Origin: a virus
Virus record (IMG/VR): IMGVR_UViG_3300012663_000801
Coordinates: 32,955-96,954 of that record
Strand: one strand, 5' to 3'
DNA length: 64,000 nucleotides
The notes under the pieces are model-generated. The model saw nothing but the letters and a program-made list of their open reading frames with translations, did no database searches and was not told the DNA's origin. Every line of letters begins with the position of its first letter. The first letter of the stretch is position 1. This document shows positions 1-12,486 of the stretch, piece after piece. The translations under genes were made by a program, and so were the position numbers.

Positions 1-1
1 G

Positions 2-292
2 AAGCCTGAGTATCTGGAAACCTTCCATGAGATCGAGGAAAACATATCAGCAAATGGAGCTTTTGGATCAGCAATCAGTGAAATTTTTGAATCGAGTCTT
101 TTGGTAGGTTTGGGAATTTCAGATGTTGTCATGGATGAGTATTCCGACATTACTTTTGAAGATTGGAGGAAAGTTCAGCGTTTGCATGACAATCCAGATA
201 ATTGGAATGATAATGGATTGAGTAAGGTGGGGCGCACATTTATTCGCAATTTCGGAGAGGAAATTTACGACCAATTGTTTCCTTCGAATTAA
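2..292 (+). CDS. Hypothetical protein, 5'-truncated by window edge
   Basis: Frame open from base 2 to TAA 290-292, which is also the start of the first repeat unit. Confidence 0.7.
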   Translation, partial: KPEYLETFHEIEENISANGAFGSAISEIFESSLLVGLGISDVVMDEYSDITFEDWRKVQRLHDNPDNWNDNGLSKVGRTFIRNFGEEIYDQLFPSN

Positions 293-313
293 AAACTAAG
301 CCAAAATACTGGC

Positions 314-883
314 ATGAAGCATTGTGATAAAATCATGATTGTTGCATCCATTACATATGCAATTGTTGCACTATCGGTGCAGACAGTTCCCAGTGTTGCG
401 ATAGTGAAGAACCTGAAAAGCTATCCTGTTCTTGTTTCACCAAAGAACAAGATCCCATGGTTTTCCAAGATGACTGATAAAGTTAAGTCTTTTGAGTCAT
501 ACAGATCACAACCCTATCGTTGTCCTGCTGGTGTTCTGACTGTTGGATATGGGCACACTGGTAGATACGCCAGCAACAGCATGTCCTTGTCCAAAGCGGA
601 ATCTGTTCTTAATCAAGAACTGATTGAAACAAAGAGAGTTGTGCTATCCAAGGTCAAAGTGAAGCTGACTGAATATCAATTGGCGGCACTTGTTAGCTTC
701 ACACATAACACAAATGAAAGTTGTCTTGATACTTTAATCAATGGCAAGAACAGACTCAACTCTGGCAATTATGATAGTGTGCCCAAGTTGCTCCCTCTCT
801 ACTGCAAAGCATCGGGGGAGACATTGCGCGGGCTGGTCATTCGCAGGAATTGGGAAGTGAAGCTCTGGAGAGGGATTTCCTAA
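314..883 (+). CDS. GH24 phage lysozyme with N-terminal hydrophobic anchor
   Basis: FESYRSQPYRCPAGVLTVGYGHT (E-x8-C-x5-T triad), AALVSFTHN, LRGLVIRRNWE; N-terminal IMIVASITYAIVALSV. Confidence 0.9.
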   Translation: MKHCDKIMIVASITYAIVALSVQTVPSVAIVKNLKSYPVLVSPKNKIPWFSKMTDKVKSFESYRSQPYRCPAGVLTVGYGHTGRYASNSMSLSKAESVLNQELIETKRVVLSKVKVKLTEYQLAALVSFTHNTNESCLDTLINGKNRLNSGNYDSVPKLLPLYCKASGETLRGLVIRRNWEVKLWRGIS

Positions 884-908
884 TTAAAAACTACACCAAA
901 ATACTGGC

Positions 909-1145
909 ATGTTCGCAGTTACCAATAACAAAGGATTCCACATTAAGTTTGCAAACGGAAACACGATCTCCGTTCAATTCGGAGAAGGAAATTATTGCGA
1001 CAATCGGCATCTGAATGAGCCGAAACAGTGCGCAAATGCTGAAGTCTGGGCATGGGATGAGAATGGCAAGCCACTGTTCGATGAACCTCTGGGATGGCAG
1101 ACCCCTGATAAGGTGGCTGCTCTGATCGCAAAATACAGCGCATAA
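909..1145 (+). CDS. Hypothetical phage protein, 78 aa
   Basis: ATG at +24 of repeat unit; stop overlaps next unit. Confidence 0.85.
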   Translation: MFAVTNNKGFHIKFANGNTISVQFGEGNYCDNRHLNEPKQCANAEVWAWDENGKPLFDEPLGWQTPDKVAALIAKYSA

Positions 1146-1166
1146 AAACTACACCAAAATACTGGC

Positions 1167-1322
1167 ATGCAAGTCGCTACCCTACTGGTCTGGAAAGAAG
1201 GAACTGATCCCGAGCGTATCAAGAAGTGGATCAAGAAGCTGGAAGAGTTGGAAGTTCTTGAGAATTATTCTCAATCGAATTTCGATGTGGAGGATTGCTA
1301 TCCGGTTCTCTACTTCCCCTGA
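1167..1322 (+). CDS. Hypothetical protein, 51 aa (MQVATLLVWKEG...YPVLYFP), absent from ORF track
   Basis: ATG at +24 of unit 1143; fills the space to the next unit. Confidence 0.8.
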   Translation: MQVATLLVWKEGTDPERIKKWIKKLEELEVLENYSQSNFDVEDCYPVLYFP

Positions 1323-1348
1323 GTTAAAAACTACACCAAAATACCACC

Positions 1349-1540
1349 ATGAAAGTTCGACCACTTGAGAATTACTGGCTGATGGGCACTGAATTCAAGC
1401 TCGACAGCACCAAGGTTTACGATGCCACCCATGCCACCAATCTCCCTGACTGGGAAGCAAAGGGGAAAATCTTCGTGTATGAAGATGAGGATGGTCCTTC
1501 GATTGTCCTTGAGAAAGGGGAATACGAAATCGTCGGTTAA
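1349..1540 (+). CDS. Hypothetical protein, 63 aa
   Basis: ATG at +24 of unit 1325. Confidence 0.8.
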   Translation: MKVRPLENYWLMGTEFKLDSTKVYDATHATNLPDWEAKGKIFVYEDEDGPSIVLEKGEYEIVG

Positions 1541-1561
1541 AAACTACACCAAAATACTGCC

Positions 1562-1810
1562 ATGATCAAGAAGAGATACCCTTGGATTTTGATTGATAAA
1601 GCGAATATGTCCAAGATGTTGCATCGCTTTTCCAGTGTCGAAAGTGTGGCATTTGCAATGATGAAAAGCGGGACTTGGACTTACAGGGATTTCTCAGAGT
1701 TCATTGTTATCAAGGATGAGATGAAAGTTGTGGATCTTTCTGCTCTGACAAAGGGTGGGGATCTTGTATCTTTCCATGCGAAAGTGAAGAAATTGCTTGA
1801 ACTCTCCTGA
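1562..1810 (+). CDS. Hypothetical protein, 82 aa
   Basis: ATG at +24 of unit 1538. Confidence 0.8.
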   Translation: MIKKRYPWILIDKANMSKMLHRFSSVESVAFAMMKSGTWTYRDFSEFIVIKDEMKVVDLSALTKGGDLVSFHAKVKKLLELS

Positions 1811-1871
1811 GATAAAAACTACACCAAAATACCGACAAAAAGAAACAACAAAACAAGAAAGCCTGCCGCAA

Positions 1872-2003
1872 ATGAATTACCTCGGATGGAAGATTTCTTA
1901 CTTTCCAATTGGCTCGCAAGTCTGGAAAGCGTCACGCTTTGGAGTTGACCTATGTGCCAATTCTAAAGAATTGCTGATGGCAATGATTGCCAGCCGCAAG
2001 TAA
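1872..2003 (+). CDS. Hypothetical protein, 43 aa (MNYLGWKISY...)
   Basis: First ATG after unit 1813, behind an A-rich leader. Confidence 0.65.
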   Translation: MNYLGWKISYFPIGSQVWKASRFGVDLCANSKELLMAMIASRK

Positions 2004-2011
2004 TTTTCTGC

Positions 2012-2040
2012 TTGACTCACTCTTTTTAACTCTTCAAAAT
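2012..2040 (+). promoter_or_regulatory. Sigma70-type promoter TTGACT-N17-CAAAAT
   Basis: Canonical spacing; same CAAAAT hexamer as the repeat units; ATG 9 nt downstream. Confidence 0.7.
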
Positions 2041-2049
2041 ATCACTACT

Positions 2050-2376
2050 ATGCCCGAAACTCCCATAATCATCAGAGTAAATAATGATCTTGATCTGCGC
2101 AATCCTATCCATGCGAAAGCGTATCTAAAAGCCGCCAATCATTTCTTGTCTGGCTGGCCCGAAGAATGGGACGCCGAAACTCTTTGCCTTGCTCTTCTTG
2201 CTGAAGAAGAAGACGACGAAGAAAACCTTGCTAATCGAAAGAAGGTCTTCCCTTGGGAGGCAATCAAAAACTCAAGCTGTTTCGAGACACAAGGCGAGTA
2301 TCGTTTTCTTGAAGAAATCATCTGTAATCTGGCAGAAGATTTCATTGATTTTCTAAACGAAACTGATCCGAGTTAA
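2050..2376 (+). CDS. Acidic hypothetical protein, 108 aa (MPETPIIIRV...)
   Basis: ATG at 2050 after the sigma70-type promoter; stop overlaps unit 2374. Confidence 0.8.
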   Translation: MPETPIIIRVNNDLDLRNPIHAKAYLKAANHFLSGWPEEWDAETLCLALLAEEEDDEENLANRKKVFPWEAIKNSSCFETQGEYRFLEEIICNLAEDFIDFLNETDPS

Positions 2377-2397
2377 AAACTACACTAAAATACTGCC

Positions 2398-2640
2398 ATG
2401 CTCGACATCACCATTGACCCGAAGGAAATCAGAGCCAGATATCACGCCGACGACACCGGACGCGGATGGTTGTATTTCTCAGTCCCAAATGGATGGGAGG
2501 ATGTGGAAAAGGTTCACAAGAAAGTCCTGACCTACGACGGGCGCAAGTTTCTCTTCAGCGGGTGGAACTCGGATCGAAACGACTGCTTCTTCAGGGAGGA
2601 ACTGAAGGGAGGCCCGATGGTGGTCGCCCGCTTCCAATAA
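2398..2640 (+). CDS. Hypothetical protein, 80 aa
   Basis: ATG at +24 of unit 2374. Confidence 0.85.
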   Translation: MLDITIDPKEIRARYHADDTGRGWLYFSVPNGWEDVEKVHKKVLTYDGRKFLFSGWNSDRNDCFFREELKGGPMVVARFQ

Positions 2641-2661
2641 AAACTACACCAAAATACTGCC

Positions 2662-2790
2662 ATGAGAACAAACGAATTGTTTGAAACGCTGCAAAATCTG
2701 CTCATTCTCTCCCTGATACTGTTCACCATCTTAGTGGGAATGGCAATCGGCACCCTTGTGACTGCGATCATCGGGTCTCTTGCCCAATAA
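2662..2790 (+). CDS. Small membrane protein, 42 aa (MRTNELFETLQNLLILSLILF...)
   Basis: ATG at +24 of unit 2638; one long hydrophobic segment. Confidence 0.75.
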   Translation: MRTNELFETLQNLLILSLILFTILVGMAIGTLVTAIIGSLAQ

Positions 2791-2811
2791 AAACTACACC
2801 AAAATCGCTGC

Positions 2812-2922
2812 ATGCAATTCCTACTCACGCTCTGCGTCACATTCATTGCCATTGGAACTCGAAGTCTGATCATGTATGTGTTCGCTGCCATCCTCTGGTA
2901 TCTCGTCGTTGTTAAAAACTAA
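2812..2922 (+). CDS. Small membrane protein, 36 aa (MQFLLTLCVTFIAIG...)
   Basis: ATG at +24 of unit 2788; hydrophobic. Confidence 0.7.
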   Translation: MQFLLTLCVTFIAIGTRSLIMYVFAAILWYLVVVKN

Positions 2923-2936
2923 ACCAAAATACTGCC

Positions 2937-3230
2937 ATGTCGAAACCATACATGACCATCAATTCCGAAGGTAACACGCTCTACTTCAAGGACAAGGGGA
3001 TGACCATTCCCCACCGGGAAGACGGTCCCGCTGTTGAGTGGCCCAATGGGCACAAGGTTTGGTATGTCAATGGCAAGCGTCATCGTGAAGATGGCCCTGC
3101 GATTGAACACGCCAACGGTGGGAAGTATTGGTATCAGAACGATGTCCTCCACCGTGAAGATGGCCCTGCGATTGAACACGCCAATGGGAACAAAGCATGG
3201 TTCCTGAATGGCCGCGAAGTTAAAAACTAA
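2937..3230 (+). CDS. HREDGPA-repeat protein
   Basis: Three HREDGPA(V/I)E repeats at about 23-aa period. Confidence 0.85.
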   Translation: MSKPYMTINSEGNTLYFKDKGMTIPHREDGPAVEWPNGHKVWYVNGKRHREDGPAIEHANGGKYWYQNDVLHREDGPAIEHANGNKAWFLNGREVKN

Positions 3231-3244
3231 ACCAAAATACTGCC

Positions 3245-3457
3245 ATGTCCAAACCGAAGTTCAAATCATTCCTTCTCACCAAGACTCATGTGACCGCAAT
3301 GGTGAAAGCCATGAAGCAAGCGGGCCTGCGCGTCGTGGAAGACAAGTCCGCTGGCACTGTCCAAGCGTTTTATGGTGAGCACGAAGTTTATGCAGCAATC
3401 GAGAAGGGGCACAATCAGCCTTGGATCGTGCGCCATGTCGAGAACCTGTTCGACTGA
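3245..3457 (+). CDS. Hypothetical protein, 70 aa
   Basis: ATG at +24 of unit 3221. Confidence 0.8.
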   Translation: MSKPKFKSFLLTKTHVTAMVKAMKQAGLRVVEDKSAGTVQAFYGEHEVYAAIEKGHNQPWIVRHVENLFD

Positions 3458-3487
3458 TCAACACGGGGGAAGCGCATCCTACACGCT
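3458..3487 (+). repeat. 30-nt intergenic element TCAACACGGGGGAAGCGCATCCTACACGCT, copy 1 of 3 (others 5279-5308, 8081-8110)
   Basis: Copies differ by one base from this one; each abuts a TAAAAACT unit. Confidence 0.95.
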
Positions 3488-3511
3488 TAAAAACTTCAGC
3501 AAAATACTGCC

Positions 3512-3694
3512 ATGACCAAGAAGCACTTCGAGTTTATCGCCTCCACCATCGAGTCCATGCCATCCTTTTCCGCCACTCTGAGGGCACAGAAGCTCTCCTG
3601 CGCGAACACCTTCGCCGATGCCTTCGCCAAGGAGTTCCCGCGATTTGATCGGGACAAGTTCCTGCAAGCCTGCGGTGTCTATTACTTTCAATGA
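3512..3694 (+). CDS. Conserved phage hypothetical protein (MTKKHF...PRFDRDKFLQAC)
   Basis: ATG at +24 of unit 3488; PRFD..RF..AC-type motif familiar from phage early proteins. Confidence 0.8.
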   Translation: MTKKHFEFIASTIESMPSFSATLRAQKLSCANTFADAFAKEFPRFDRDKFLQACGVYYFQ

Positions 3695-3697
3695 GTG

Positions 3698-3748
3698 CAT
3701 GGCAAAGTCCCCTCTCTCTGGTGGTTCGGAGAGAGGGGCAACCCTTTT
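3698..3748 (+). terminator. Hairpin family B, copy 1 (copy 2 at 6001-6052)
   Basis: CCCCTCTCTCTG-GTGGTT-CGGAGAGAGGGG vs CCTCCCTCTCTG-GTGGTT-CGGAGAGGGAGG, compensatory changes, short T run after. Confidence 0.7.
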
Positions 3749-3774
3749 AAAAACTACAGCAAAATCATGGCACC

Positions 3775-4122
3775 ATGAAAGTCCGTGTTTACTTCAACCT
3801 GCACAAGAAACTCCTTTCGATTCAAACGAAAGTGAATGGCGCGTGGAAGGTGATCAGCCACCGCCAGAGCGTTAGCCTGTCCGATGTCACCTTCAAGGTG
3901 TCGGAGCGTGGTCGCCAGCGGGTGATCAAGAACAAGCGGAAGAACGTCCACGCCTACATCTGCGGCACCCTCAACGATGAACTGGTGAACGAGAGCGGGA
4001 TGGACCCGATCATCTACAACCCCTACAAGTTCGAGCGTTTCTTCAATGGTGAGCGATACGTGGACACCGCTGAAAGGGTCTTCATCGATGGTCGCAAGGT
4101 TTACGCCGCGAACGCCCAATAA
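3775..4122 (+). CDS. Conserved phage hypothetical protein (VYFNLHKK...KRKNVHAY...YNPYK)
   Basis: ATG at +27 of unit 3748; familiar phage family motifs. Confidence 0.85.
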   Translation: MKVRVYFNLHKKLLSIQTKVNGAWKVISHRQSVSLSDVTFKVSERGRQRVIKNKRKNVHAYICGTLNDELVNESGMDPIIYNPYKFERFFNGERYVDTAERVFIDGRKVYAANAQ

Positions 4123-4143
4123 AAACTACAGCAAAATACTGAC

Positions 4144-4281
4144 ATGCGCCAACGCTACTTCCTCTGGAACCTGCCACTCATCGACGGTGGCGAAATGATC
4201 ATCATCCACGAAATCACCCGGAACAACAACAAGGTGACCGGGTTCATCAACCACCGCTTCACCTTCCCGAAGGACCAATAA
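4144..4281 (+). CDS. Hypothetical protein, 45 aa (MRQRYFLWNLP...)
   Basis: ATG at +24 of unit 4120; stop overlaps next unit. Confidence 0.75.
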   Translation: MRQRYFLWNLPLIDGGEMIIIHEITRNNNKVTGFINHRFTFPKDQ

Positions 4282-4305
4282 AAACTACACCAAAATACCC
4301 CTGCC

Positions 4306-4539
4306 ATGAAAAACAAATTCCGCAACCAAGACGGCACGATCACCTCTTATTCATTCGCCTGTGGATACGTTGAAAGATACGGAAACTGGGATATTCCACG
4401 GGCCACAATTTCCCGCGAGGCCAATGGCTACCATGTCAAAGGGTTCGACAAGGACGGGAAACACTTCTGGGAAATCGTGGACAAGGTGAAGGACGCCAGA
4501 GCGATTGCCCGCAAGCAAGGGGGGAAGCTGAACAAATAA
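4306..4539 (+). CDS. Hypothetical protein, 77 aa
   Basis: ATG at +27 of unit 4279. Confidence 0.8.
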   Translation: MKNKFRNQDGTITSYSFACGYVERYGNWDIPRATISREANGYHVKGFDKDGKHFWEIVDKVKDARAIARKQGGKLNK

Positions 4540-4563
4540 AAACTACAGGAGAATAGCTGCACT

Positions 4564-4779
4564 ATGGAACACTTTCTAACTGAACAGCAAAAACATATCA
4601 TCTATCAGGAATATCGCAGTTATGATTGCGCAATGAGCGATCCATGGCGCAATGACTTTTCTGATGATGGGCAAGCGGATGATGAATGGAGACGGGAAAA
4701 CATGCTGGAAAATATCCGCGAGCAAATGCCCGAAATTCCCCTCGAAATGATTGAGGACGAAATTGACAGAATTTCTTGA
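4564..4779 (+). CDS. Acidic hypothetical protein, 71 aa
   Basis: ATG at +27 of unit 4537. Confidence 0.8.
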   Translation: MEHFLTEQQKHIIYQEYRSYDCAMSDPWRNDFSDDGQADDEWRRENMLENIREQMPEIPLEMIEDEIDRIS

Positions 4780-4816
4780 AATCTTCTGATAAAAACTACA
4801 GCAAAATAACGCTGCC

Positions 4817-4969
4817 ATGCAGAACAACATGCTATTCACTGTCAGCGGGGAAGTCCTCGCCTATGCCGTCACAAGGGATGCGGCAATCGCCATCTCGAAT
4901 TTCGCTCGTCGCCCCGTTCGCTGGGGGGATGAATTGATCGGAGGAGAATACGTCGGATGCGTCGGATAA
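4817..4969 (+). CDS. Hypothetical protein, 50 aa (MQNNMLFTVSG...)
   Basis: ATG at +27 of unit 4790; stop overlaps next unit. Confidence 0.75.
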   Translation: MQNNMLFTVSGEVLAYAVTRDAAIAISNFARRPVRWGDELIGGEYVGCVG

Positions 4970-4993
4970 AAACTACAGTAAAATAACGCTGCC

Positions 4994-5275
4994 ATGAAGA
5001 CCAAGAAAGAAATCAAGCTCAAGGACGGTTCCACTCTTCCCAAGGGACTCCGCGTCACGTTCATCGAGGACAAGCCCACCCGATGCCTTGTCCACTCGCC
5101 TGCTCATCCGGCACCGCTGCAAGTGCGGATCACCAGCGCGTTTCACGCCCCATCATACGAGAGGATGGAAGGCTGGGGCTGCATCTGCAAGACTCCCACC
5201 GGGCAGACTGTCGAGCCTGACGGCTACGGGGAAGACGGAAGCCCTTCGTGGCTGATCGTTCTCGGTCTGATCTGA
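4994..5275 (+). CDS. Hypothetical phage protein (VEPDG...PSWLIVLGLI)
   Basis: ATG at +27 of unit 4967. Confidence 0.85.
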   Translation: MKTKKEIKLKDGSTLPKGLRVTFIEDKPTRCLVHSPAHPAPLQVRITSAFHAPSYERMEGWGCICKTPTGQTVEPDGYGEDGSPSWLIVLGLI

Positions 5276-5332
5276 TACTCAACACGGGGGAAGCGCATCC
5301 GACACGCTTAAAAACTACAGTAAACTCCCGCC

Positions 5333-5407
5333 ATGCCTGACCTCACCAACCTCAACGACGCAGACCTGCAAGACCTCATCGACTTCCTCGCAGGTGTGAC
5401 AAAATGA
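5333..5407 (+). CDS. 24-aa peptide MPDLTNLNDADLQDLIDFLAGVTK
   Basis: ATG at +24 of unit 5309; resembles N-terminus of 8588-8728. Confidence 0.6.
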   Translation: MPDLTNLNDADLQDLIDFLAGVTK

Positions 5408-5460
5408 CGCACCTGACCGAAACCCGCCTGTAAAAACTACACTAAACTTTTGCCACGACC

Positions 5461-5676
5461 ATGAAAATCAACTGCATCGACATCGAATGGGACACAGACG
5501 GAGACGAAGAAATCCTTGCCACTCTTCCGACCGAAGTGATCGTTGACCTCAACGAAATCGAAGGCTTTGAGGATGAAGATGTTACAGAGGAAAACTCTTC
5601 CGATATTGCGGACTATCTTTCGGACGAATACGGGTTCTGCATCTTCAGCTTCAACTATCAAACGCTCAATTCCTGA
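5461..5676 (+). CDS. Highly acidic protein, 71 aa
   Basis: IEWDTDGDEE...IADYLSDEYGFC; follows unit 5431. Confidence 0.85.
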   Translation: MKINCIDIEWDTDGDEEILATLPTEVIVDLNEIEGFEDEDVTEENSSDIADYLSDEYGFCIFSFNYQTLNS

Positions 5677-5715
5677 CCACCCGCTTTTAAAAACTTCAGC
5701 AAAATCGCTACCGAC

Positions 5716-5997
5716 ATGAGACTCATCACCAAGAAAATCCACCTCGCCTTCTTCGCAGGCCGCGCCCTCACCCTCGGCAACACCCGCACAGACGGCAACA
5801 GCGTCTGGCTCCACGGCAACAAGATCGTGGAGATGCGCGAGGACGGCGTTTACGCTACCCTCGCAGGCTGGAACACTCCCACGACTCGGGAGCGCGTGAA
5901 CGGCATCACGGGTGCCCGGTTCAGCCAGAAAAATTTCACCCCGCACTTGGACGGGAAGCCAATCGACGCAAACGAATGGCACAAGGTTCTAGGCTGA
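5716..5997 (+). CDS. Conserved phage hypothetical protein (LHGNKI...AGWNTPTTRERVN)
   Basis: ATG at +28 of unit 5688. Confidence 0.85.
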   Translation: MRLITKKIHLAFFAGRALTLGNTRTDGNSVWLHGNKIVEMREDGVYATLAGWNTPTTRERVNGITGARFSQKNFTPHLDGKPIDANEWHKVLG

Positions 5998-6079
5998 AGT
6001 CATGGCAAAAGTCCTCCCTCTCTGGTGGTTCGGAGAGGGAGGCATCTCTTTTAAAAACTTGAGTAAGATCCCTACCGAC

Positions 6080-6352
6080 ATGAACGACACGCTCGCTACC
6101 CTGATCCGCTCCATCCCGCTCATCACCCGTTTCGAGGAGAACGGTGTGATTCGGGAATATCCCGCTCGCTTCCACTTTGTGGAAGCAGAGGTCAACCCGG
6201 CCTTCGGACCAGTCCAAGAACACCTCGCTCTGGTGGACGAAAGCGGTGGCGACCCCGCCCTGCTCTTCGATGCTAGCACCATCAAAACCAACGGCGACTG
6301 GTTCACCTTCGAGGACTCGCTCCACGGCACGGTCGAGTTCAAGCCAGCCTAA
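6080..6352 (+). CDS. Hypothetical protein, 90 aa (MNDTLATLIRS...)
   Basis: ATG at +28 of unit 6052; the track start at 6002 runs through a hairpin and promoter unit. Confidence 0.8.
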   Translation: MNDTLATLIRSIPLITRFEENGVIREYPARFHFVEAEVNPAFGPVQEHLALVDESGGDPALLFDASTIKTNGDWFTFEDSLHGTVEFKPA

Positions 6353-6359
6353 CAATCCA

Positions 6360-6400
6360 GCCCCCAGTGTTCACCTGAGCACTGGGGGCTTTTCTCTTTT
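6360..6400 (+). terminator. Hairpin/terminator family A, copy 1 of 5 (others about 6962, 7647, 8738, 9123)
   Basis: GCCCCC(A/G)GTGTTCA...CAC(T/C)GGGGGC plus T-tract; A-T to G-C covariation between copies. Confidence 0.85.
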
Positions 6401-6426
6401 AAAAACTTCACCAAAATAGCTGCGCC

Positions 6427-6648
6427 ATGATTCCTACCACTTACTACTGCCCGATCCGCTCGAACACTTTCGAGGTCCAAATCATTGAGGTGAAGTCCCA
6501 CTGGGCATGTGCAGCTTTTGCACGCTTCCGCTGCCTGATCGGTGTGTGGAACTTCAACTGCACCTCGTTCATCGACATTGCCCAAGGCAATGGCATGACC
6601 GAGAAAGAGGCTTTCGACGCTGCCGTTAAAGACGCACAGGGAGTCTGA
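6427..6648 (+). CDS. Hypothetical protein, 73 aa
   Basis: ATG at +27 of unit 6400. Confidence 0.75.
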   Translation: MIPTTYYCPIRSNTFEVQIIEVKSHWACAAFARFRCLIGVWNFNCTSFIDIAQGNGMTEKEAFDAAVKDAQGV

Positions 6649-6687
6649 TCACCCCGCTTTTAAAAACTTCACCAAAATAGCTGCACC

Positions 6688-6954
6688 ATGACAACGCTCA
6701 TTACCGGAAACACCTACCCCGTCCGCGACCAAATCAAAGCCCTCGGTGGTCGCTGGAATGCACCACGTAAGGGCTGGGAAGTCCCCAACGACAAGGCCGA
6801 CGAAGCCCGCGCCATCGTGGCGGATGCACCCGTCAACTACCGCTCGCGCTCCCGCTACGTGTCCGACACGTTCAAGACCAGCGGCGGCACGTTCTACCGC
6901 AACCGCAACGGACGATGCGAGGATGCACCCTGCTGCGGCTGCTGCACCTTCTGA
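6688..6954 (+). CDS. Phage protein with TYPVRDQIKALGGRW domain and C-terminal RCEDAPCCGCC metal-binding motif
   Basis: Motifs in translation; ATG at +27 of unit 6661. Confidence 0.85.
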   Translation: MTTLITGNTYPVRDQIKALGGRWNAPRKGWEVPNDKADEARAIVADAPVNYRSRSRYVSDTFKTSGGTFYRNRNGRCEDAPCCGCCTF

Positions 6955-7028
6955 TTCAATCGCCCCCAGTGTTCACCTGAGCACTGGGGGCTTTTTTCAT
7001 TTAAAAACTTCGACAAAATAGCTGCGCC

Positions 7029-7073
7029 ATGAAGCCCACCCTACACGAAACCCACAAAGGAGGTGCCCAATGA
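7029..7073 (+). CDS. 14-aa uORF MKPTLHETHKGGAQ coupled to 7070-7267
   Basis: ATG at +27 of unit 7002; contains AAGGAGGT; ATGA overlap with next ORF. Confidence 0.6.
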   Translation: MKPTLHETHKGGAQ

Positions 7074-7267
7074 TTCGCGCCTTCGATTCAAGGGGTCGCG
7101 AAGTGTTCCTGCGTCCGGGTCGAATCCTTCCAGAGGGAACGATCACCCAGCGCGGGAATGATTTCCAGACTCTGGAAACTCCGGTGGTTTACCGGAAAAG
7201 TCGAGTCTGGAACACGCTGACCCAATCGTGGGACGAATCGGAAGATCTGATCCCAATTGAGAAATAA
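7070..7267 (+). CDS. Hypothetical protein, 65 aa
   Basis: Strong Shine-Dalgarno AAGGAGGT upstream. Confidence 0.8.
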   Translation: MIRAFDSRGREVFLRPGRILPEGTITQRGNDFQTLETPVVYRKSRVWNTLTQSWDESEDLIPIEK

Positions 7268-7291
7268 AAACTTGAGTAAGATCCTGCTGCC

Positions 7292-7639
7292 ATGAGCACC
7301 ACCACCACCATCGTCACCAAGCAGTCCCTCCTCGAAATGCTCACCGCCTCCCGCGAGCGTCAAGCTCAGGTTGTCGGTCGCGCCCTCGTCGCTCTCTTCC
7401 TTCGCCAGACGGAGGATGAGAAGGACGCCAACAAAACGAACCACGACAACGATGTCGGGTTCCAGCACTCGGACGCCAAGAGGGGCAGCATCACCGCCAA
7501 GTATTTCCTGAAGCACCGCACGCTTCAGGACTGGCAGATCGAGCCTTGGCTTGCCCCACAGGGTGCCAAGGGCTATCCTCGGATTGCCAAGTATTCGCGC
7601 CAGCTGAACGAAATCGCCCTCGAAAAGCGCAAGGGCTGA
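7292..7639 (+). CDS. Conserved phage hypothetical protein (RQTEDEK...NDVGF...D)
   Basis: ATG at +27 of unit 7265. Confidence 0.85.
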   Translation: MSTTTTIVTKQSLLEMLTASRERQAQVVGRALVALFLRQTEDEKDANKTNHDNDVGFQHSDAKRGSITAKYFLKHRTLQDWQIEPWLAPQGAKGYPRIAKYSRQLNEIALEKRKG

Positions 7640-7713
7640 TTCAATCGCCCCCGGTGTTCAAACGGACACCGGGGGCTTTTTTCATTTAAAAACTTCGCCA
7701 AAATACCCCTGCC

Positions 7714-8079
7714 ATGAAAACATACCAAGTTCGCTACAACGGAAAGCAGACCACAGCCCTCTGGATCGCGGAGGGCTGGATCATCGACGGTGCCCTCGTC
7801 CCTACCGGGGCAGCGGCAATCCTCAATCCCTACGTCACCCGCGCCCAGATCTGGGAGTGGTATGGCGAAGAGGAACACGTTGGTGACCCCGCCTTCGGTC
7901 GCTACAAGGCCAAGGGTGGGCAAGACTTCATCGTTCACCTGACCACTGAGCAGGCATACGATGAGGAAGCGGTCCTCGCGAAGCTCAACGAGCGGCTGAA
8001 CACGAACGGGAAATGGACCCGGTTCGAGTTCAAGGGTGAACTCGAATACTACTTCGAGCCAACGGTGGTGGAACTGTGA
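7714..8079 (+). CDS. Hypothetical protein, 121 aa
   Basis: ATG at +27 of unit 7687. Confidence 0.85.
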   Translation: MKTYQVRYNGKQTTALWIAEGWIIDGALVPTGAAAILNPYVTRAQIWEWYGEEEHVGDPAFGRYKAKGGQDFIVHLTTEQAYDEEAVLAKLNERLNTNGKWTRFEFKGELEYYFEPTVVEL

Positions 8080-8137
8080 ATCAACAAGGGGGAAGCGCAT
8101 CCTACACGCTTAAAAACTTCGCCAAAATAGCTACGCC

Positions 8138-8362
8138 ATGATCGACCACATCACCACTGGCCCTCTCGCTGGGCACTTCACCCTCAATGGGTCCACTGAC
8201 TTCGCTGGAGATGTCCTCCAGTTGTTCCGGGATGGCGTGAAAGCCACCCCAAAAGCCCGCGTCCTGCTTTCTAAGTGGGCGAAGGAAGCCGATGCCCAAG
8301 CGGCAGCCAATGAGAAGGCATGGGACGAATTCAACGCCCATTACCCGTTTGGCGTTTATTAA
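8138..8362 (+). CDS. Hypothetical protein, 74 aa
   Basis: ATG at +27 of unit 8111. Confidence 0.8.
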   Translation: MIDHITTGPLAGHFTLNGSTDFAGDVLQLFRDGVKATPKARVLLSKWAKEADAQAAANEKAWDEFNAHYPFGVY

Positions 8363-8386
8363 AAACTTCGCCAAAATAGCTACGCC

Positions 8387-8566
8387 ATGAACATCATCAT
8401 CCTTGCCATCACAATCGCCTTCGTCGCCCCTGCCCTCGCCACCCGTGCGGCTGGGTCCAGCATCGTGGACTCCATCACCGCAGGGGTCGCAGGCGTCGGC
8501 ATCGGCGTCCTTCTCTACACCGCTGCCGTGCTGGCAGCAGCCTTCGGGCACGTTACCGCTCTGTAA
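8387..8566 (+). CDS. Two-TM membrane protein, 59 aa (MNIIILAITIAF...)
   Basis: ATG at +27 of unit 8360; stop overlaps next unit. Confidence 0.8.
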   Translation: MNIIILAITIAFVAPALATRAAGSSIVDSITAGVAGVGIGVLLYTAAVLAAAFGHVTAL

Positions 8567-8587
8567 AAACTTGGGTAAACTCCTGCC

Positions 8588-8728
8588 ATGCCTGACAACC
8601 TCACCGCCGCCGAGCTTGACGAGCTTATCGCCAAGCTCGCCCCCGTGACGCTCACCGCTTCCGCCATCGACCCCGCCCTCTTCGGACCAACAGCCCCCAG
8701 CGGGCTGCGTCTCGTCAGCGAAGCCTGA
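8588..8728 (+). CDS. Hypothetical protein, 46 aa (MPDNLTAAELDELIAKLAP...)
   Basis: ATG at +24 of unit 8564. Confidence 0.75.
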   Translation: MPDNLTAAELDELIAKLAPVTLTASAIDPALFGPTAPSGLRLVSEA

Positions 8729-8801
8729 TTCAATCCAGCCCCCGGTGTTCACCCAAGCACCGGGGGCTTCCTTTTAAAAACTTGGGTAAACTGTTACTAC
8801 C

Positions 8802-9116
8802 ATGAACCTGATCAACCTCACGCCCCACGCCATCAACGAAGTCACAACCGGGAGCACATTCGCTCCATCGGGCACTGTCGCCCGAGTGTCCACCAGCCTC
8901 GCCCCCCTTGGCGAGGTCAACGGAATCCCCTTGTTCTCAAGGGCTTTCGGAGAGGTCATCGGCCTCCCAGCCCCTGCCGAGGGTGTCCTGCTCATCGTCT
9001 CGGCCCTCGTGGCTGATGCCAGCCCTGACAGGCTGGATCTCGTCAGCCCCGGCGAATTGGTCAGGGATGACAAGGGCCAGCCCGTGGGCTGCAAGGGCTT
9101 TGTCCGCAAAGCCTGA
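8802..9116 (+). CDS. NLTPH-family small protein, possible Crn4-like ring nuclease
   Basis: LINLTPH, PSGTVARV, GLPAP..GVLLIVS, DLVSPGELVRD..G..VGC; family link is from recall only. Confidence 0.55.
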   Translation: MNLINLTPHAINEVTTGSTFAPSGTVARVSTSLAPLGEVNGIPLFSRAFGEVIGLPAPAEGVLLIVSALVADASPDRLDLVSPGELVRDDKGQPVGCKGFVRKA

Positions 9117-9122
9117 CTCTCA

Positions 9123-9167
9123 GCCCCCGGTGTTCACCTGAACGGTGGACGCCGGGGGCTTTTTTTT
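9123..9167 (+). terminator. Strong intrinsic terminator closing the array
   Basis: GCCCCCGGTGTTCACC...GGTGGACGCCGGGGGC followed by T8. Confidence 0.9.
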
Positions 9168-9363
9168 GGCTTTCGTTTTTGTAGTTTTTAACAGAGCTTG
9201 ATAAAAACTAGGGGGTCTGTTTGGATTTGCTTTAGTTTTTAAAAGGGGGTCGGGGGGTGGTGGGGGCCATGGCCAAAAATATTTATTTTATAAAATTCTT
9301 AAAATCTGCCTATTGAAAAAAATTTTTTTTTCTAAAATTCTCCCGATTTTCCCTATAGGGAAT

Positions 9364-10686
9364 TTATCTATTACTCATTAAATTCAATATAGCTTTTTTA
9401 TGGTTTGAAGGGAGCTTGAGAAATTCCTCCACTCCCGTTGCCCATAACTCATCATCATTTGCCATGCCATAGGAGTCTACCCACTTTACCAAATCTCTCA
9501 TTTCTTCGCGATATGGGGATTTGTCATTCCCTACCAACTTGTCTTCGGATTGGGGGAAATTTTTTTGAGTTAATGTATTTTCAAAAATATTATATACAAA
9601 ATTTATTATCATCATAACGATTCCATATCTATTATTATCTAATTCATCAAATTTATTACTAACTTCCGTATAAGAATCATCATTAGCGAATATAAAATTC
9701 TCGTTATGTTTTGTTTCACTTAATAGATAATTAGAAATGGATTCAAATTCTGATACCCAATCTTCTCCATCTTCCTTCGCCCACTTCCAATCACCCTCAT
9801 CCGCTTCCACTGAACGTTTTATATTCTTTATTAATTTTTCATAAAATAATTTTGTTAAGGCATTACTTAGATAATTGAGTTGTTTCTTATAAATTTTCAT
9901 ATCAACATACCAGAACTGTGATTTGGTTTGCATATCACTAATTATTTTTAATATTAATGCTCTAGTTTTGAATTTAAAATTATCTCTCCAAGAATTGATG
10001 TATGTTTTTTCATCTTCTTTCCATGGAGAATCGTCATCATTATATTTGTTTATAACGTATCCTTGGTAGATGTTTCTGACGATATACATCATTTCTCTGA
10101 CCACCTCATTCCATATTGTATCACTATAATTACGACCCAATAATTTTTCTGTTTGTTCAAAACTTTTAATTTTTGTTATGTGTTTAAATGGTTCTTTTTC
10201 TCTTTCTTTTTGTGCCACGGCGAAATTTGTTTTGTATTGGTTCAATAGAGTATTGTAGTATTCCTTTACTGCCATTTTGAATCCTTTGGAATTGTTGAAC
10301 ATCCATAGGTGCGCCCATTCATGGACTATAACCTTTATTAGATAATTTGGTTTGTTAATTTGATTCAATCCAACTGTCATGTATTTCCCTTTGCGGTGTG
10401 CATAACCCCCAACTCCTCCTCCTGAAACCCAATTTACTTCCTCTGATAAGTTTTTGATGAGAATGTTTGCATGCATGGAAGGAAAACCCATCTTGGTGAT
10501 TATCTTTCTTGCTTCCGTGCAAGCGTCCGTTATTTTTTCTTTTAATTCATTCATGCTCTCTACTTTATCCGCATCATCTTTAAAAAGATAAACAGTAAAC
10601 ATAGGTAACTTTGTGATGGGGATCACCTTTTTTGATTGGGAGAATTTTGCTTCTCTTATTAAAAAGTATTCTTTGAAAGATATCAT
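9364..10686 (-). CDS. Zincin-like metallopeptidase with capsid-targeting-like N-terminus
   Basis: VIVHEWAHLW (HExxH); distal SYGMANDDELWA; MISFKEYFLIRE; TAAATA-N5-ATG. Confidence 0.75.
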   Translation of the reverse strand: MISFKEYFLIREAKFSQSKKVIPITKLPMFTVYLFKDDADKVESMNELKEKITDACTEARKIITKMGFPSMHANILIKNLSEEVNWVSGGGVGGYAHRKGKYMTVGLNQINKPNYLIKVIVHEWAHLWMFNNSKGFKMAVKEYYNTLLNQYKTNFAVAQKEREKEPFKHITKIKSFEQTEKLLGRNYSDTIWNEVVREMMYIVRNIYQGYVINKYNDDDSPWKEDEKTYINSWRDNFKFKTRALILKIISDMQTKSQFWYVDMKIYKKQLNYLSNALTKLFYEKLIKNIKRSVEADEGDWKWAKEDGEDWVSEFESISNYLLSETKHNENFIFANDDSYTEVSNKFDELDNNRYGIVMMIINFVYNIFENTLTQKNFPQSEDKLVGNDKSPYREEMRDLVKWVDSYGMANDDELWATGVEEFLKLPSNHKKAILNLMSNR

Positions 10687-10730
10687 TCTATTATTTAATT
10701 TTTTTTCCCAATTCTCCCGATTCGACCGTA

Positions 10731-10757
10731 TAAAAACTACGGTATAATCCTGACATG
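10731..10757 (+). promoter_or_regulatory. Array-type promoter unit with perfect TATAAT (further TATAAT copies at 10899 and 11444)
   Basis: TAAAAACTACGGTATAATCCTGACATG. Confidence 0.85.
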
Positions 10758-10901
10758 AATAAAGACAAACTGCTCATCGCTGTAATTATTGCATCTGCCA
10801 TCATTCCCATCATGTATTTCCTGACGCAGTTATCGCCTCTTGAAACTCGCCAATACAATGGTAAGAATTCTTGCAAATGTGGTTGCCACTGTGACGGATA
10901 A
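10755..10901 (+). CDS. Small membrane protein with Cys-rich tail, 48 aa
   Basis: MNKDKLLIAVIIASAIIPIMYFL...SCKCGCHCDG; ATG at +24. Confidence 0.7.
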   Translation: MNKDKLLIAVIIASAIIPIMYFLTQLSPLETRQYNGKNSCKCGCHCDG

Positions 10902-10989
10902 AAACTACAGTATAATGATGGCAGATCACGACGGCAACAAACCGAACACGATCTTCGAAATTTAAAAAATAAAAAAGTTCTTAATGATG

Positions 10990-11018
10990 TTGACAAATGA
11001 AAATCTCATGATTAAATA
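10990..11018 (+). promoter_or_regulatory. Composite promoter TTGACA-N17-TAAATA upstream of tRNA-Met
   Basis: Perfect -35 plus late-type box; same arrangement on minus strand at 21889-21917. Confidence 0.7.
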
Positions 11019-11028
11019 CTAACTCAAT

Positions 11029-11105
11029 CGCGGGTTAGACAGGAGGTGGTTCCTGCCGGGTTTCATAAGCCTAGTACGTCGGTTCGACTCCGACACCCGC
11101 TACCA
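11029..11105 (+). tRNA. tRNA-Met(CAT), initiator-like
   Basis: CGCGGG acceptor with unpaired C1, TTCATAA loop, GGTTCGACTCC, encoded CCA. Confidence 0.85.
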
Positions 11106-11106
11106 A

Positions 11107-11181
11107 GCGTTCTTGATGTAATGGTTAACATGCCCTCCTTCCAAGTGGGTTACGAGAGTTCGAGTCTCTCAGAGCGCACCA
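11107..11181 (+). tRNA. tRNA-Gly(TCC)
   Basis: Cloverleaf, CTTCCAA loop, encoded CCA. Confidence 0.9.
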
Positions 11182-11196
11182 TTTTAAATCAATCGA

Positions 11197-11460
11197 ATGA
11201 GAATAACATATAAAGAAACAACAGAGTCCTTTTCACCTATTCCTCTTGTTTCCATCTTTTATGGAATATTTTATAAAGATGGTGTTGAATTTGTTCGTAT
11301 TAAGGATTCATTTGTATACGGTTTTAAAATGTATTATAAAAATGATGATGATATGAAAACTGAAATGAAAAGGGTTTTGTTTCATGCATTGAATGATCCT
11401 TCTTTGGAGGATGAATTTTGGAAAGTGTTCGAAGAAAGGTTCTTAAAAACTAGACTATAA
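11197..11460 (+). CDS. Hypothetical protein, 87 aa
   Basis: ORF between tRNA blocks. Confidence 0.65.
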   Translation: MRITYKETTESFSPIPLVSIFYGIFYKDGVEFVRIKDSFVYGFKMYYKNDDDMKTEMKRVLFHALNDPSLEDEFWKVFEERFLKTRL

Positions 11461-11528
11461 TGAGGGCATGTAAAAAATTGAAGAAAATTCTTGAAAAAAG
11501 TTTTGATATTGCTAAGTATTACTACAGC

Positions 11529-11591
11529 ATGAAATACCAGCAATATAATCAAAACAAACCAGCGACACCGATTGGGTGGCGGCGTGGATGA
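11529..11591 (+). CDS. Leader peptide MKYQQYNQNKPATPIGWRRG
   Basis: 20 codons; 3' end is complementary to the 5' arm of the downstream terminator. Confidence 0.75.
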   Translation: MKYQQYNQNKPATPIGWRRG

Positions 11592-11619
11592 TTCTATTGT
11601 AAATCATATTGAATCTTGC

Positions 11620-11654
11620 GCCCCATCTCTTCCAAAGATGGGGTTTTTTATTTT
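11620..11654 (+). terminator. Intrinsic terminator (attenuator) ahead of main tRNA block
   Basis: CCCCATCT-CTTCCAA-AGATGGGG followed by TTTTTTATTTT. Confidence 0.9.
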
Positions 11655-11727
11655 AGGGGTGAACGAAGCGACCTGAACAGCTAGAGAGTGGTGAAAGACT
11701 AATAGAGAATACGGTAATATATTTTTT

Positions 11728-11802
11728 GGGTTCATAATTCAATGGTAGAATAACTCACTTTTAATGAGTAAGCTGAAGGTTCGAGTCCTTCTGGACCCAC
11801 CA
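11728..11802 (+). tRNA. tRNA-Lys(TTT)
   Basis: ACTCA-CTTTTAA-TGAGT, T-arm, CCA. Confidence 0.95.
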
Positions 11803-11815
11803 TATTTTTTTTAAT

Positions 11816-11891
11816 GCTCCTGTCGTCTAAAGGTTAGGACAAAGGATTTTCAATCCTTAGATCGTGGGTTCAAGTCCCCGTGGGAGCACCA
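11816..11891 (+). tRNA. tRNA-Glu(TTC)
   Basis: AAGGA-TTTTCAA-TCCTT, CCA. Confidence 0.9.
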
Positions 11892-11901
11892 TTTTTTAAA
11901 T

Positions 11902-11988
11902 GCGTTAGCGGCGAAGTAGGTGAGTCGCGGCGGTCTGTAAAACCGCAGCCTTCGGGCTAAGTAGGTTCGAACCCTACCTGACGCACCA
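11902..11988 (+). tRNA. tRNA-Tyr(GTA)
   Basis: GCGGT-CTGTAAA-ACCGC, long variable arm, CCA. Confidence 0.95.
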
Positions 11989-11991
11989 TAT

Positions 11992-12067
11992 CTTGGCGTA
12001 GCGCAATTGGTAGCGCGGGTAGTTTGGGACTATCAGGTTGTAGGTTCGAGTCCTACCGTCGAGACCA
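11992..12067 (+). tRNA. tRNA-Pro(TGG)
   Basis: GGTAG-TTTGGGA-CTATC, C1-G72, CCA. Confidence 0.95.
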
Positions 12068-12077
12068 TTTTTTTCAT

Positions 12078-12154
12078 GGGCCATTAGTTCAGCTGGTAGA
12101 ACGTCTGATTTGCATTCAGAATGTCATGAGTTCGAGTCTCATATGTGTCCACCA
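12078..12154 (+). tRNA. tRNA-Ala(TGC), one-base bulge in acceptor stem
   Basis: TCTGA-TTTGCAT-TCAGA, G3:U70, CCA. Confidence 0.9.
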
Positions 12155-12158
12155 TAAT

Positions 12159-12232
12159 TGGGGGTTGGTGTAATGGTAGCACCGCAGATTTTGATTCTGT
12201 TAGCGAGGGTTCGACTCCCTCATCCCCTGCCA
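12159..12232 (+). tRNA. tRNA-Gln(TTG)
   Basis: GCAGA-TTTTGAT-TCTGT, G73, CCA. Confidence 0.95.
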
Positions 12233-12241
12233 ATTTTCAAA

Positions 12242-12317
12242 TCCCAAGTAGCACAGCGGTAGTTGCGTTCGACTGTTAATCGAAATGTCGGTGGTTCGAT
12301 CCCACCCTTGGGAGCCA
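12242..12317 (+). tRNA. tRNA-Asn(GTT)
   Basis: TTCGA-CTGTTAA-TCGAA, G73, CCA. Confidence 0.95.
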
Positions 12318-12325
12318 GATATAAA

Positions 12326-12399
12326 GGCCCGGTAGTTAAATGGTAGAACAGTAGATTTGTAACCTTCAGACGAGAGTTCGATTCTCTCTCGGGCCTCCA
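12326..12399 (+). tRNA. tRNA with Thr anticodon (TGT) on a Cys-like acceptor
   Basis: TTTGTAA loop; anticodon stem has 2 mismatches; G1-C72, G2-C71, C3-G70, U73. Confidence 0.7.
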
Positions 12400-12409
12400 T
12401 TATTCATAT

Positions 12410-12486
12410 CCTCCTATAGCTCAGTTGGTTAGAGCACTCGTTTGATAAATGAGAGGTCGTTAGTTCAAGTCTAACTGGGAGGACCA
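12410..12486 (+). tRNA. tRNA-Ile(GAT)
   Basis: CTCGT-TTGATAA-ATGAG, CCA. Confidence 0.9.

Follow-up and report, generated by a model that had tools for sequence, protein, structure and literature searches.

The window analyzed here, 64,000 nucleotides (nt) that form the right-hand 64 kb of a 96,954-bp virus contig of the IMG/VR database (IMGVR_UViG_3300012663_000801; hereafter G000), contains a long series of cassettes, each opened by a copy of the same short unit. The unit comprises an invariant sequence termed the box (TAAAAACT), four variable nt, and a hexamer that resembles the −10 element of bacterial promoters, and it opens one open reading frame (ORF) of 14–189 amino acids (aa). Judging from its layout, the unit is very probably a promoter that would yield messages with no leader or almost none. 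As a whole, we consider it probable, if well short of assured, that the units are promoters for the RNA polymerase of the host, are read with the aid of a protein belonging to the phage lineage, and double as the joints at which the cassettes recombine.

TAAAAACT occurs 39 times on the two strands of the window; the expected number is 4.8 ± 2, and none of 100 shuffles gave more than 10 copies. The initial annotation, which was made from the letters of the window, had counted 31 units in the array and 34 in the window, and our recount returned the same figures: 31 units lie on the plus strand between positions 290 and 8775, and three more are found on the same strand at 10731, 10899, and 11444. 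Its view of an array starting at position 290 was not upheld, as the motif continues for 32 kb leftward beyond the window. The scan of the remaining genome that it had called for revealed 72–78 units in the entire contig, all on the plus strand, between contig positions 1323 and 44399. What lies at 290–9167 is no more than the GC-rich distal part of an early region that spans 44 kb on one strand.

The window encodes a gp23-type major head protein, a portal protein, a helicase, and a ribonucleotide reductase, together with 11 tRNAs. The head protein is at most approximately 33% identical to that of any GenBank phage, with the best matches being gp23 of T4-like cyanophages, and a megablast search of window positions 1–12000 against GenBank phages returned no match. 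Hundreds of uncultured relatives were found in IMG/VR; the complete ones are approximately 200 kb long with terminal repeats, so that G000 is regarded as a fragment. On these comparisons of sequences, the source is an uncultured phage that is distantly related to T4 and measures approximately 200 kb when complete. We compared six complete relatives (G001–G006), making seven genomes together with G000. G001 is syntenic with G000 at 80–87% nucleotide identity, and the head proteins of G002, G003, and G004 are 85, 75, and 72% identical to that of G000, respectively, while those of G005 and G006 share approximately 61% identity with it. Eight extra contigs covering the early region (L286–L291, L293, and L295) were retrieved via a conserved early protein of 80 aa. 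No box promoter was found in the capsid-gene fragments L015, L016, L025, L028, and L029, which probably do not include the early region. As for the host, none of the markers WhiB, psbA, and bS21 was found, and promoters of the Bacteroidetes type (TAnnTTTG/TTTG) were not enriched in G001–G004. Homologs of the cassette genes occur in phages of many unrelated hosts and give no host for this phage.

The geometry of the unit can be read directly from its copies. When the predicted start of transcription is numbered +1, the box occupies −24 to −17 (TAAAAACT(A) extends to −16) and the hexamer −12 to −7. The hexamers are CAAAAT, TAAAAT, TAAACT, TAAGAT, GAGAAT, and TATAAT, as listed in the initial annotation, and every copy bears A2 and T6, two positions that the search pattern underlying the 72-copy statistics itself demanded. 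The three to four nt ahead of the hexamer read acac, acag, tcgc, agaa, and the like. With positions counted from the T of the box (position 0), all of the 72 copies have C or T at 23 and 68 of them have A or G at 24, so that the pyrimidine–purine step noticed earlier, 7 nt past the hexamer, holds contig-wide. The step is kept with or without an ATG at that place, including in the units before tRNA genes (10899 and 11444) and before a leadered ORF (1813).

ATG lies 6–9 nt past the hexamer. Within 290–9167, its offset from the T of the box is 24 in 14 units, 27 in 13, 28 in two, and 30 in one, and the remaining unit (box 1813) has none; the 16 units with an ATG at 24 that were reported previously are reached with 10731 and 11444 added, and the 13 units at 27 were recovered as such. 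Across the contig, ATG coincides with the predicted +1 in 42 of the 72 units and lies 3 nt further in 13–16 of them. The corresponding fractions for exact coincidence in the box promoters of four other genomes are 35/67, 75/111, 39/60, and 40/57. GTG is almost never found at the predicted start in the box promoters of these five genomes, which fits recruitment of the ribosome by the 5′ AUG itself. The lack of a Shine-Dalgarno sequence, pointed out for the array at the outset, applies far beyond it: no such signal was found at the units or in any of the seven genomes.

No information content was detected at the −35 position across the 72 copies. The extended −10 TG at −15/−14 is not present in the box units either, and TGn is confined to a separate class of promoters with TTGACA. 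TTGAC[A/T] is placed 16–18 bp ahead of the hexamer in 13 box promoters of the five genomes against 0.55 expected, which argues for the hexamer being the −10 element in ordinary sigma70 geometry. A G+C-rich stem-loop with a T run stands directly ahead of each of seven units, all in the distal half of the array, and approximately 24 units have none. As units directly follow strong terminators and precede tRNA genes, transcription must start there. At 11 of the 30 array junctions, the upstream ORF ends on the TAA of the box, in agreement with the earlier remark that this is often so.

The initial annotation had presented the units as a non-canonical promoter giving leaderless messages. The promoter geometry with no −35 stands, but the leaderless layout, as predicted from the sequences, is common to three promoter classes and is not special to the box units. 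T4-type late promoters (TAAATA-N5-ATG) precede 26–63 genes per genome, and the late promoter is laid out in the same manner relative to ATG in all seven genomes, including the boxless G005 and G006; late messages are thus also predicted to be leaderless. In the window, late promoters of the form TAAATA(AT) lie 5–6 nt ahead of the ATG of late genes on the minus strand, for instance at 10686, 19187, 33653, 43327, and 61932. The third class, TTGACn-N13-15-TGnTAnnnT, is enriched approximately 10-fold in G001–G004 (21–26 observed vs. 1.4–3 expected) and not in G005 and G006; copies were found at contig positions 6261, 8909, and 9335, and some copies lie 6 nt ahead of ATG. Most of the genes with no promoter of their own overlap the preceding stop codon or carry A/C-rich leaders. 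We also noted a protein of approximately 225 aa (G001 144815–145483; L097:12200-12868:-) with a leaderless TTGAC-type promoter that is kept in all four complete relatives with the box; it had no match in PHROG.

The box differs between sublineages. TAAAAACTA is common to G000, G001, and G002, with 72, 67, and 111 copies on one strand, respectively. The G003 box is AAACACTA (67 copies), which also occurs in L290, L291, and L293, and the G004 box is TAATTAAAACCGAA (approximately 60 copies), which also occurs in L287–L289, with just two copies of this type in L286. In both their −10 and their leaderless layout, the units of G003 and G004 agree with those of G000. All three versions are positioned from −27/−24 to −14/−16, and only AAnAC at −22 to −18 is common to them when they are aligned on the −10. 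No copy of the box was found in L295, and G005 and G006 have no such box. TAAAAACCAC exemplifies a box sequence of other genomes that is unlike those found here. All of the 67–111 copies of the box per genome are identical while the adjoining three to four nt and the hexamer vary, implying selection on the box itself and not only recombinational homogenization. Across the sublineages, on the other hand, TTGACA, TGn, and TAnAAT are identical while the box changes. Together with the lack of −35 and TGn in the box promoters, this favors a lineage-specific protein as the reader of the box. Furthermore, we scanned 185,579 bacterial species genomes with a pattern composed of the box, the −10, and CATG at the start. 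Among the matches listed, there were scattered single matches in unrelated taxa and no genome that had the motif in numbers.

The cassettes are reshuffled between close relatives. When the box-driven proteins of G000, G001, and G002 were grouped, 124 were singletons and the others formed 45 shared families. The comparison of cassette order that the initial annotation had suggested showed these families to be permuted among the three genomes: for example, F30–F1 in one corresponds to F1–F30 in another, F16 and F39 have moved, and single cassettes have been gained or lost. For three moved cassettes, the alignments start at the box and stop at the next box or terminator, and the flanks are unrelated. 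Of the 48 ends of homology blocks, 75% fall within 45 nt of a box, compared with 29% for random positions and a maximum of 54% in 2,000 trials. As homology blocks end at the units, we regard with high confidence that the units act as recombination joints in the manner of the promoter-early stem-loop (PeSL) units of other T4-like phages, in accordance with what had been surmised from the window.

We propose the following scheme. Each unit would be a promoter for the multisubunit RNA polymerase of the host, with the hexamer acting as a sigma70-type −10 and the invariant TAAAAACT(A) standing in for the absent −35 and TGn. Transcription, presumably early in infection, would begin 7 nt past the hexamer, on the A of ATG in approximately 60% of the units and 3 nt before it in approximately 20%, and the messages, having no leader or nearly none, would not need a Shine-Dalgarno sequence. 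The box would most likely be bound by a sequence-specific protein of the phage lineage that resembles MotA/AsiA in logic, shows no detectable kinship to them in sequence, and binds nearer to the −10. Such a reader may be made from the canonical TTGACA/TGnTAnnnT promoters, or, possibly, be injected with the DNA. A repeat of approximately 27 nt ahead of every gene, sometimes accompanied by a terminator, would allow homologous recombination to delete, insert, and reorder single genes, and the array would be a hyperplastic region of the PeSL or PmSL type. We lean only slightly toward a phage-specific reader of the box, and rank lower a reading by the host enzyme alone. In its boldest form, which we put forward tentatively, the proposal is that of an unrecognized promoter-specificity protein that would recognize a box of 8–14 bp at −27 to −14 beside a normal −10 and come in at least three specificities, in phages where essentially every gene lacks a Shine-Dalgarno sequence and most are leaderless. 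If true, the three specificities would resemble orthogonal promoters of the T7 type, but on the host enzyme, and the phage could shut down leader-dependent translation of the host while its own messages are spared.

Several results weigh against the scheme. All start sites are predicted from promoter geometry. Recurrent recombination between units could homogenize them and explain part of the identity within a genome, and a host factor that differs between hosts could account for the versions of the box. The bacterial scan required CATG at the start, and its outcome covers the matches listed. Pfam searches did not find the reader. MotA (both domains, PF09158 and PF09114) and AsiA (PF09010) were searched for in this contig and four complete relatives, with no match at E ≤ 1, although remote homologs are possible. 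Sigma70 region 4 of Pfam had no match, and region 2 had one weak match of approximately 150 aa per complete genome, which is probably a gp55-like late factor. The suggestion of a phage activator or an unusual sigma factor, made in the initial annotation, gains strength from the change of the box between sublineages with TTGACA and the −10 held constant, but the reader remains putative: neither MotA, AsiA, nor an extra sigma factor was detected. A profile of presence in the phages with the box and absence in G005 and G006 left 43 candidates, too many to use. Ten conserved early proteins, searched against Pfam and PHROGs, comprised phosphatases and a receiver domain and no regulator. Two conserved early proteins behind canonical promoters, p80 (80 aa; contig 6293–6535) and p128 (128 aa; contig 8952–9338), had no family match; their structure models were poor (pLDDT 50 and 59), and look-ups in PDB and Atlas gave only weak hints of a winged helix for p128. 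We regard p128 as a poor candidate for the reader, as its putative recognition helix is not kept between G001 and G002, which have the same box.

Alternatively, the host holoenzyme itself may recognize the box, by way of sigma region 3, the beta-prime zipper, or a different contact in the spacer; the units would then be true early promoters that work with no phage protein, and the versions of the box would reflect different hosts, or drift combined with homogenization. Core and sigma contacts with the extended −10 and spacer elements are well established. The box sits in the spacer, where such contacts exist, a −35 at normal spacing can accompany it, and its three versions share the AAnAC core. 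In addition, no phage reader has been found, and T4-type arrays of small ORFs use early, host-only promoters (PMC2839356). Nevertheless, spacer contacts of RNA polymerase do not behave like a block of 8–9 bp that is constant over 67–111 copies while the spacer and hexamer next to it vary, and TTGACA, TGn, and TAnAAT are constant across the sublineages and the box is not. Many of the hexamers are CAAAAT, weak at −12, and with no TGn and no −35, their unaided use by a sigma70-type enzyme is not expected. In addition, no bacterial genome with the motif in numbers was among the matches listed. We consider reading by the host holoenzyme alone unlikely, while giving it far more weight than the three explanations that follow.

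The unit could also act on RNA, either as the place at which a long early transcript is cut ahead of each AUG or as an A-rich signal for restarting translation with no Shine-Dalgarno sequence. Read-through RNA must carry the units, given that the stop codon lies inside the box at 11 of the 30 junctions and many junctions have no terminator; the conserved pyrimidine–purine step could be the cleavage site, and the general lack of Shine-Dalgarno sequences fits as well. An RNA element would, however, leave unaccounted for the −10 signature and spacing of the hexamer, the −35 hexamers at 16–18 bp far above chance, the restart of expression past strong terminators and ahead of tRNA genes, and the two other promoter classes with the same distance to ATG, which together render this explanation improbable. 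We assign a still smaller chance to the unit serving mainly a dedicated site-specific recombinase, as attC does in integrons, with promoter activity being secondary. The homology breakpoints at the units and the steady climb of the G+C content at third codon positions (GC3) toward the distal end of the array could be taken in its favor, but the units have no inverted-repeat core, and over 44 kb they also precede the genes of a 2H phosphoesterase, a cREC-type receiver domain, a phosphatase, and other conserved early genes, as well as tRNA genes. Ordinary homologous recombination between repeats of 27–79 nt is sufficient, as for PeSLs (PMC2839356). The least probable explanation is that the phage encodes an RNA polymerase of its own and that the units are its promoters. 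The length, invariance, lineage specificity, and fixed start of the motif are reminiscent of T7-type phages, but a search of four complete relatives for a T7-like polymerase detected none, the variation of the hexamer is just that of −10 elements, and the gp55-like factor with T4-type late promoters implies the use of the host core enzyme.

The features of the array are as follows, all on the plus strand unless stated otherwise; the interval of a cassette begins at its box. The first cassette (290–883; CAAAAT, ATG 314) encodes a protein of 189 aa with a phage lysozyme domain (PF00959, E 2e-26). It is followed by cassettes at 885–1145 (ATG 909, 78 aa; the stop codon is the TAA of box 1143), 1143–1322 (ATG 1167, 51 aa; family F32, moved in G001), 1325–1540 (ATG 1349, 63 aa), and 1538–1810 (ATG 1562, 82 aa). 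Box 1813 with CAAAAT (1813–2003) has no ATG at +1; the predicted start falls on an A-rich leader, and an ORF of 43 aa is possible at 1872–2003. The sole boxless ORF of the array (2050–2376, 108 aa; with its promoter, 2012–2376) has TTGACT-N17-CAAAAT at 2012–2040, the arrangement already assigned to it in the initial annotation. Next come cassettes at 2374–2640 (TAAAAT, ATG 2398, 80 aa), 2638–2790 (ATG 2662, 42 aa), 2788–2922 (ATG 2812, 36 aa), 2913–3230 (ATG 2937, 97 aa), and 3221–3457 (ATG 3245, 70 aa). The protein at 2937–3230 belongs to the paralog family F3, of which the contig has three cassettes (the others at contig 31721 and 32256) and G001 one; internal repeats of 69 nt encode an HREDGPAIE-like motif. 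A 30-nt intergenic repeat, TCAACACGGGGGAAGCGCATCCTACACGCT, lies at 3458–3487 directly ahead of the cassette at 3488–3694 (ATG 3512, 60 aa); its other copies, at 5279–5308 and 8081–8110, also directly precede boxes, and it does not fold into a stem-loop.

A G+C-rich stem-loop with a T run (3709–3738; −25 kcal/mol, z −3.2) stands directly ahead of box 3748, whose cassette (3748–4122; ATG 3775 after a predicted 3-nt leader, 115 aa) encodes a member of the mycobacteriophage L5 gp82 family (PF25735, E 1e-30). The cassettes at 4120–4281 (ATG 4144, 45 aa), 4279–4539 (ATG 4306, 77 aa), 4537–4779 (GAGAAT, ATG 4564, 71 aa), 4790–4969 (ATG 4817, 50 aa), 4967–5275 (TAAAAT, ATG 4994, 93 aa), 5309–5407 (TAAACT, ATG 5333, 24 aa; family F4, present in G001 and G002), and 5431–5676 (TAAACT, ATG 5461 after a predicted 6-nt leader, 71 aa) lead to that at 5688–5997 (ATG 5716, 93 aa), which matches the Kyanoviridae Gp96 family (PF23790, E 7e-7). 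A terminator-like stem-loop (6013–6042; −25 kcal/mol, z −4.0) precedes the cassette at 6052–6352 (TAAGAT, ATG 6080, 90 aa; family F16, in a different place in G001), and an intrinsic-terminator-like stem-loop with a T run (6359–6390), which is part of a 79-nt repeat of terminator plus promoter, precedes that at 6400–6648 (ATG 6427, 73 aa). The cassette at 6661–6954 (ATG 6688, 88 aa) belongs to family F39, moved in G001, and is followed by a terminator-like stem-loop with a T run (6962–6991). In the cassette at 7002–7267, an ORF of 14 codons begins at ATG 7029, and its stop codon overlaps (ATGA) the ATG of a 65-aa ORF at 7070–7267; the pair represents a leader peptide followed by coupled restart or, alternatively, a frameshifted gene. 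Beyond the cassette at 7265–7639 (TAAGAT, ATG 7292, 115 aa) and a further terminator-like stem-loop with a T run (7647–7676) lie those at 7687–8079 (ATG 7714, 121 aa), 8111–8362 (ATG 8138, 74 aa), 8360–8566 (ATG 8387, 59 aa), and 8564–8728 (TAAACT, ATG 8588, 46 aa). After a terminator-like stem-loop (8737–8768), the last cassette of the array (8775–9116; TAAACT, ATG 8802, 104 aa) is followed by the strongest terminator (9122–9160; 17 pairs and T8), which closes the array.

Just past this terminator, three boxes with no −10 are clustered at 9183–9241 (9183 on the minus, 9202 on the plus, and 9234 on the minus strand) and conserved in G001; they could be a cluster of sites for the box reader at the border of early and late genes. 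All three units beyond the array have TATAAT. That at 10731 opens a cassette (10731–10901; ATG 10755, 48 aa), box 10899 (10899–11181) has no ORF and lies upstream of tRNA-Met and tRNA-Gly, and box 11444 (11444–12486) has a one-codon ORF, ATG-TAA, at the predicted start and lies upstream of nine tRNA genes.

Among the 20 array proteins tested, the lysozyme and the L5 gp82 and Kyanoviridae Gp96 families were the only three family matches. The latter two are widespread phage families of unknown function. We thus found no support for the idea, advanced in the initial annotation, that the array holds genes for takeover of the host. GC3 of the box-driven ORFs rises distally from 0.44 to 0.73 (window 1–9167 and contig 1–33000) against 0.32 in the late genes; the same gradient is seen in G001 and a weaker one in G002. 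The array genes favor C-ending codons (CTC, ATC, AAC, ACC, GCC, and CGC), and the phage tRNAs read A/U-ending ones. The rise of GC3 and this set of tRNAs suggest either adaptation of the earliest genes to a host richer in G+C or the entry of new genes at the distal end.

A full-text literature search for the box returned chance strings only, and we found nothing relevant on leaderless messages in T4-like or gp55-bearing phages and no published description of this architecture. If the start sites hold, the phages studied here would represent a T4-like group in which three promoter classes give messages beginning with AUG, and thus a natural system in which to study the translation of leaderless messages beyond Actinobacteria and Deinococcus. 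Among unrelated phages, the middle and late promoters of the Thermus phage P23-45 consist of a −10 with no −35, the host polymerase being retargeted by phage proteins, and many of the messages are leaderless. An extended −10 TG motif is used there in place of the invariant 8–9 bp box found here, and we know of no description of cassette shuffling in P23-45.

The middle promoters of T4 and the PmSL units of vibriophage nt-1 are similar to the box units in combining a −10 with an upstream box that replaces the −35 and in coexisting with a canonical host-type class and gp55-type late promoters; PmSLs are, in addition, cassettes with stem-loops, for which gene shuffling at the units has likewise been described (PMC4122927). 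On the other hand, the Mot box of T4 (TGCTT core) is centered at approximately −30, whereas the box described here has another sequence, ends at −16/−17, and occurs in at least three lineage versions. Neither MotA nor AsiA was detected here, the Shine-Dalgarno sequence that PmSLs carry is absent, and the messages are predicted to be leaderless. The variants of the box offer a comparative handle on how the host RNA polymerase may be retargeted with no MotA/AsiA, and may yield small orthogonal pairs of promoter and factor.

PeSLs are known from RB49/phi1, T4/PST, and KVP40/nt-1 (PMC2839356 and PMC4122927). The box units share with them the genomic setting, namely a short promoter unit repeated ahead of nearly every small ORF of unknown function in the hyperplastic region of a T4-like genome. 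In both, the unit contains the stop codon of the upstream ORF, and stretches gained, lost, or replaced between relatives are bounded by units. In contrast, PeSLs are sigma70 promoters with −35 and −10, an A/T-rich upstream part, and a terminal Shine-Dalgarno sequence, while the box units have neither a −35 nor a Shine-Dalgarno sequence, place the box at −24 to −16 and ATG at the predicted start site, and carry a stem-loop in only seven of approximately 31 cases. Shuffling of the PeSL type thus appears to be independent of a −35/−10 promoter or a terminator, and any short unit repeated with each gene may be enough.

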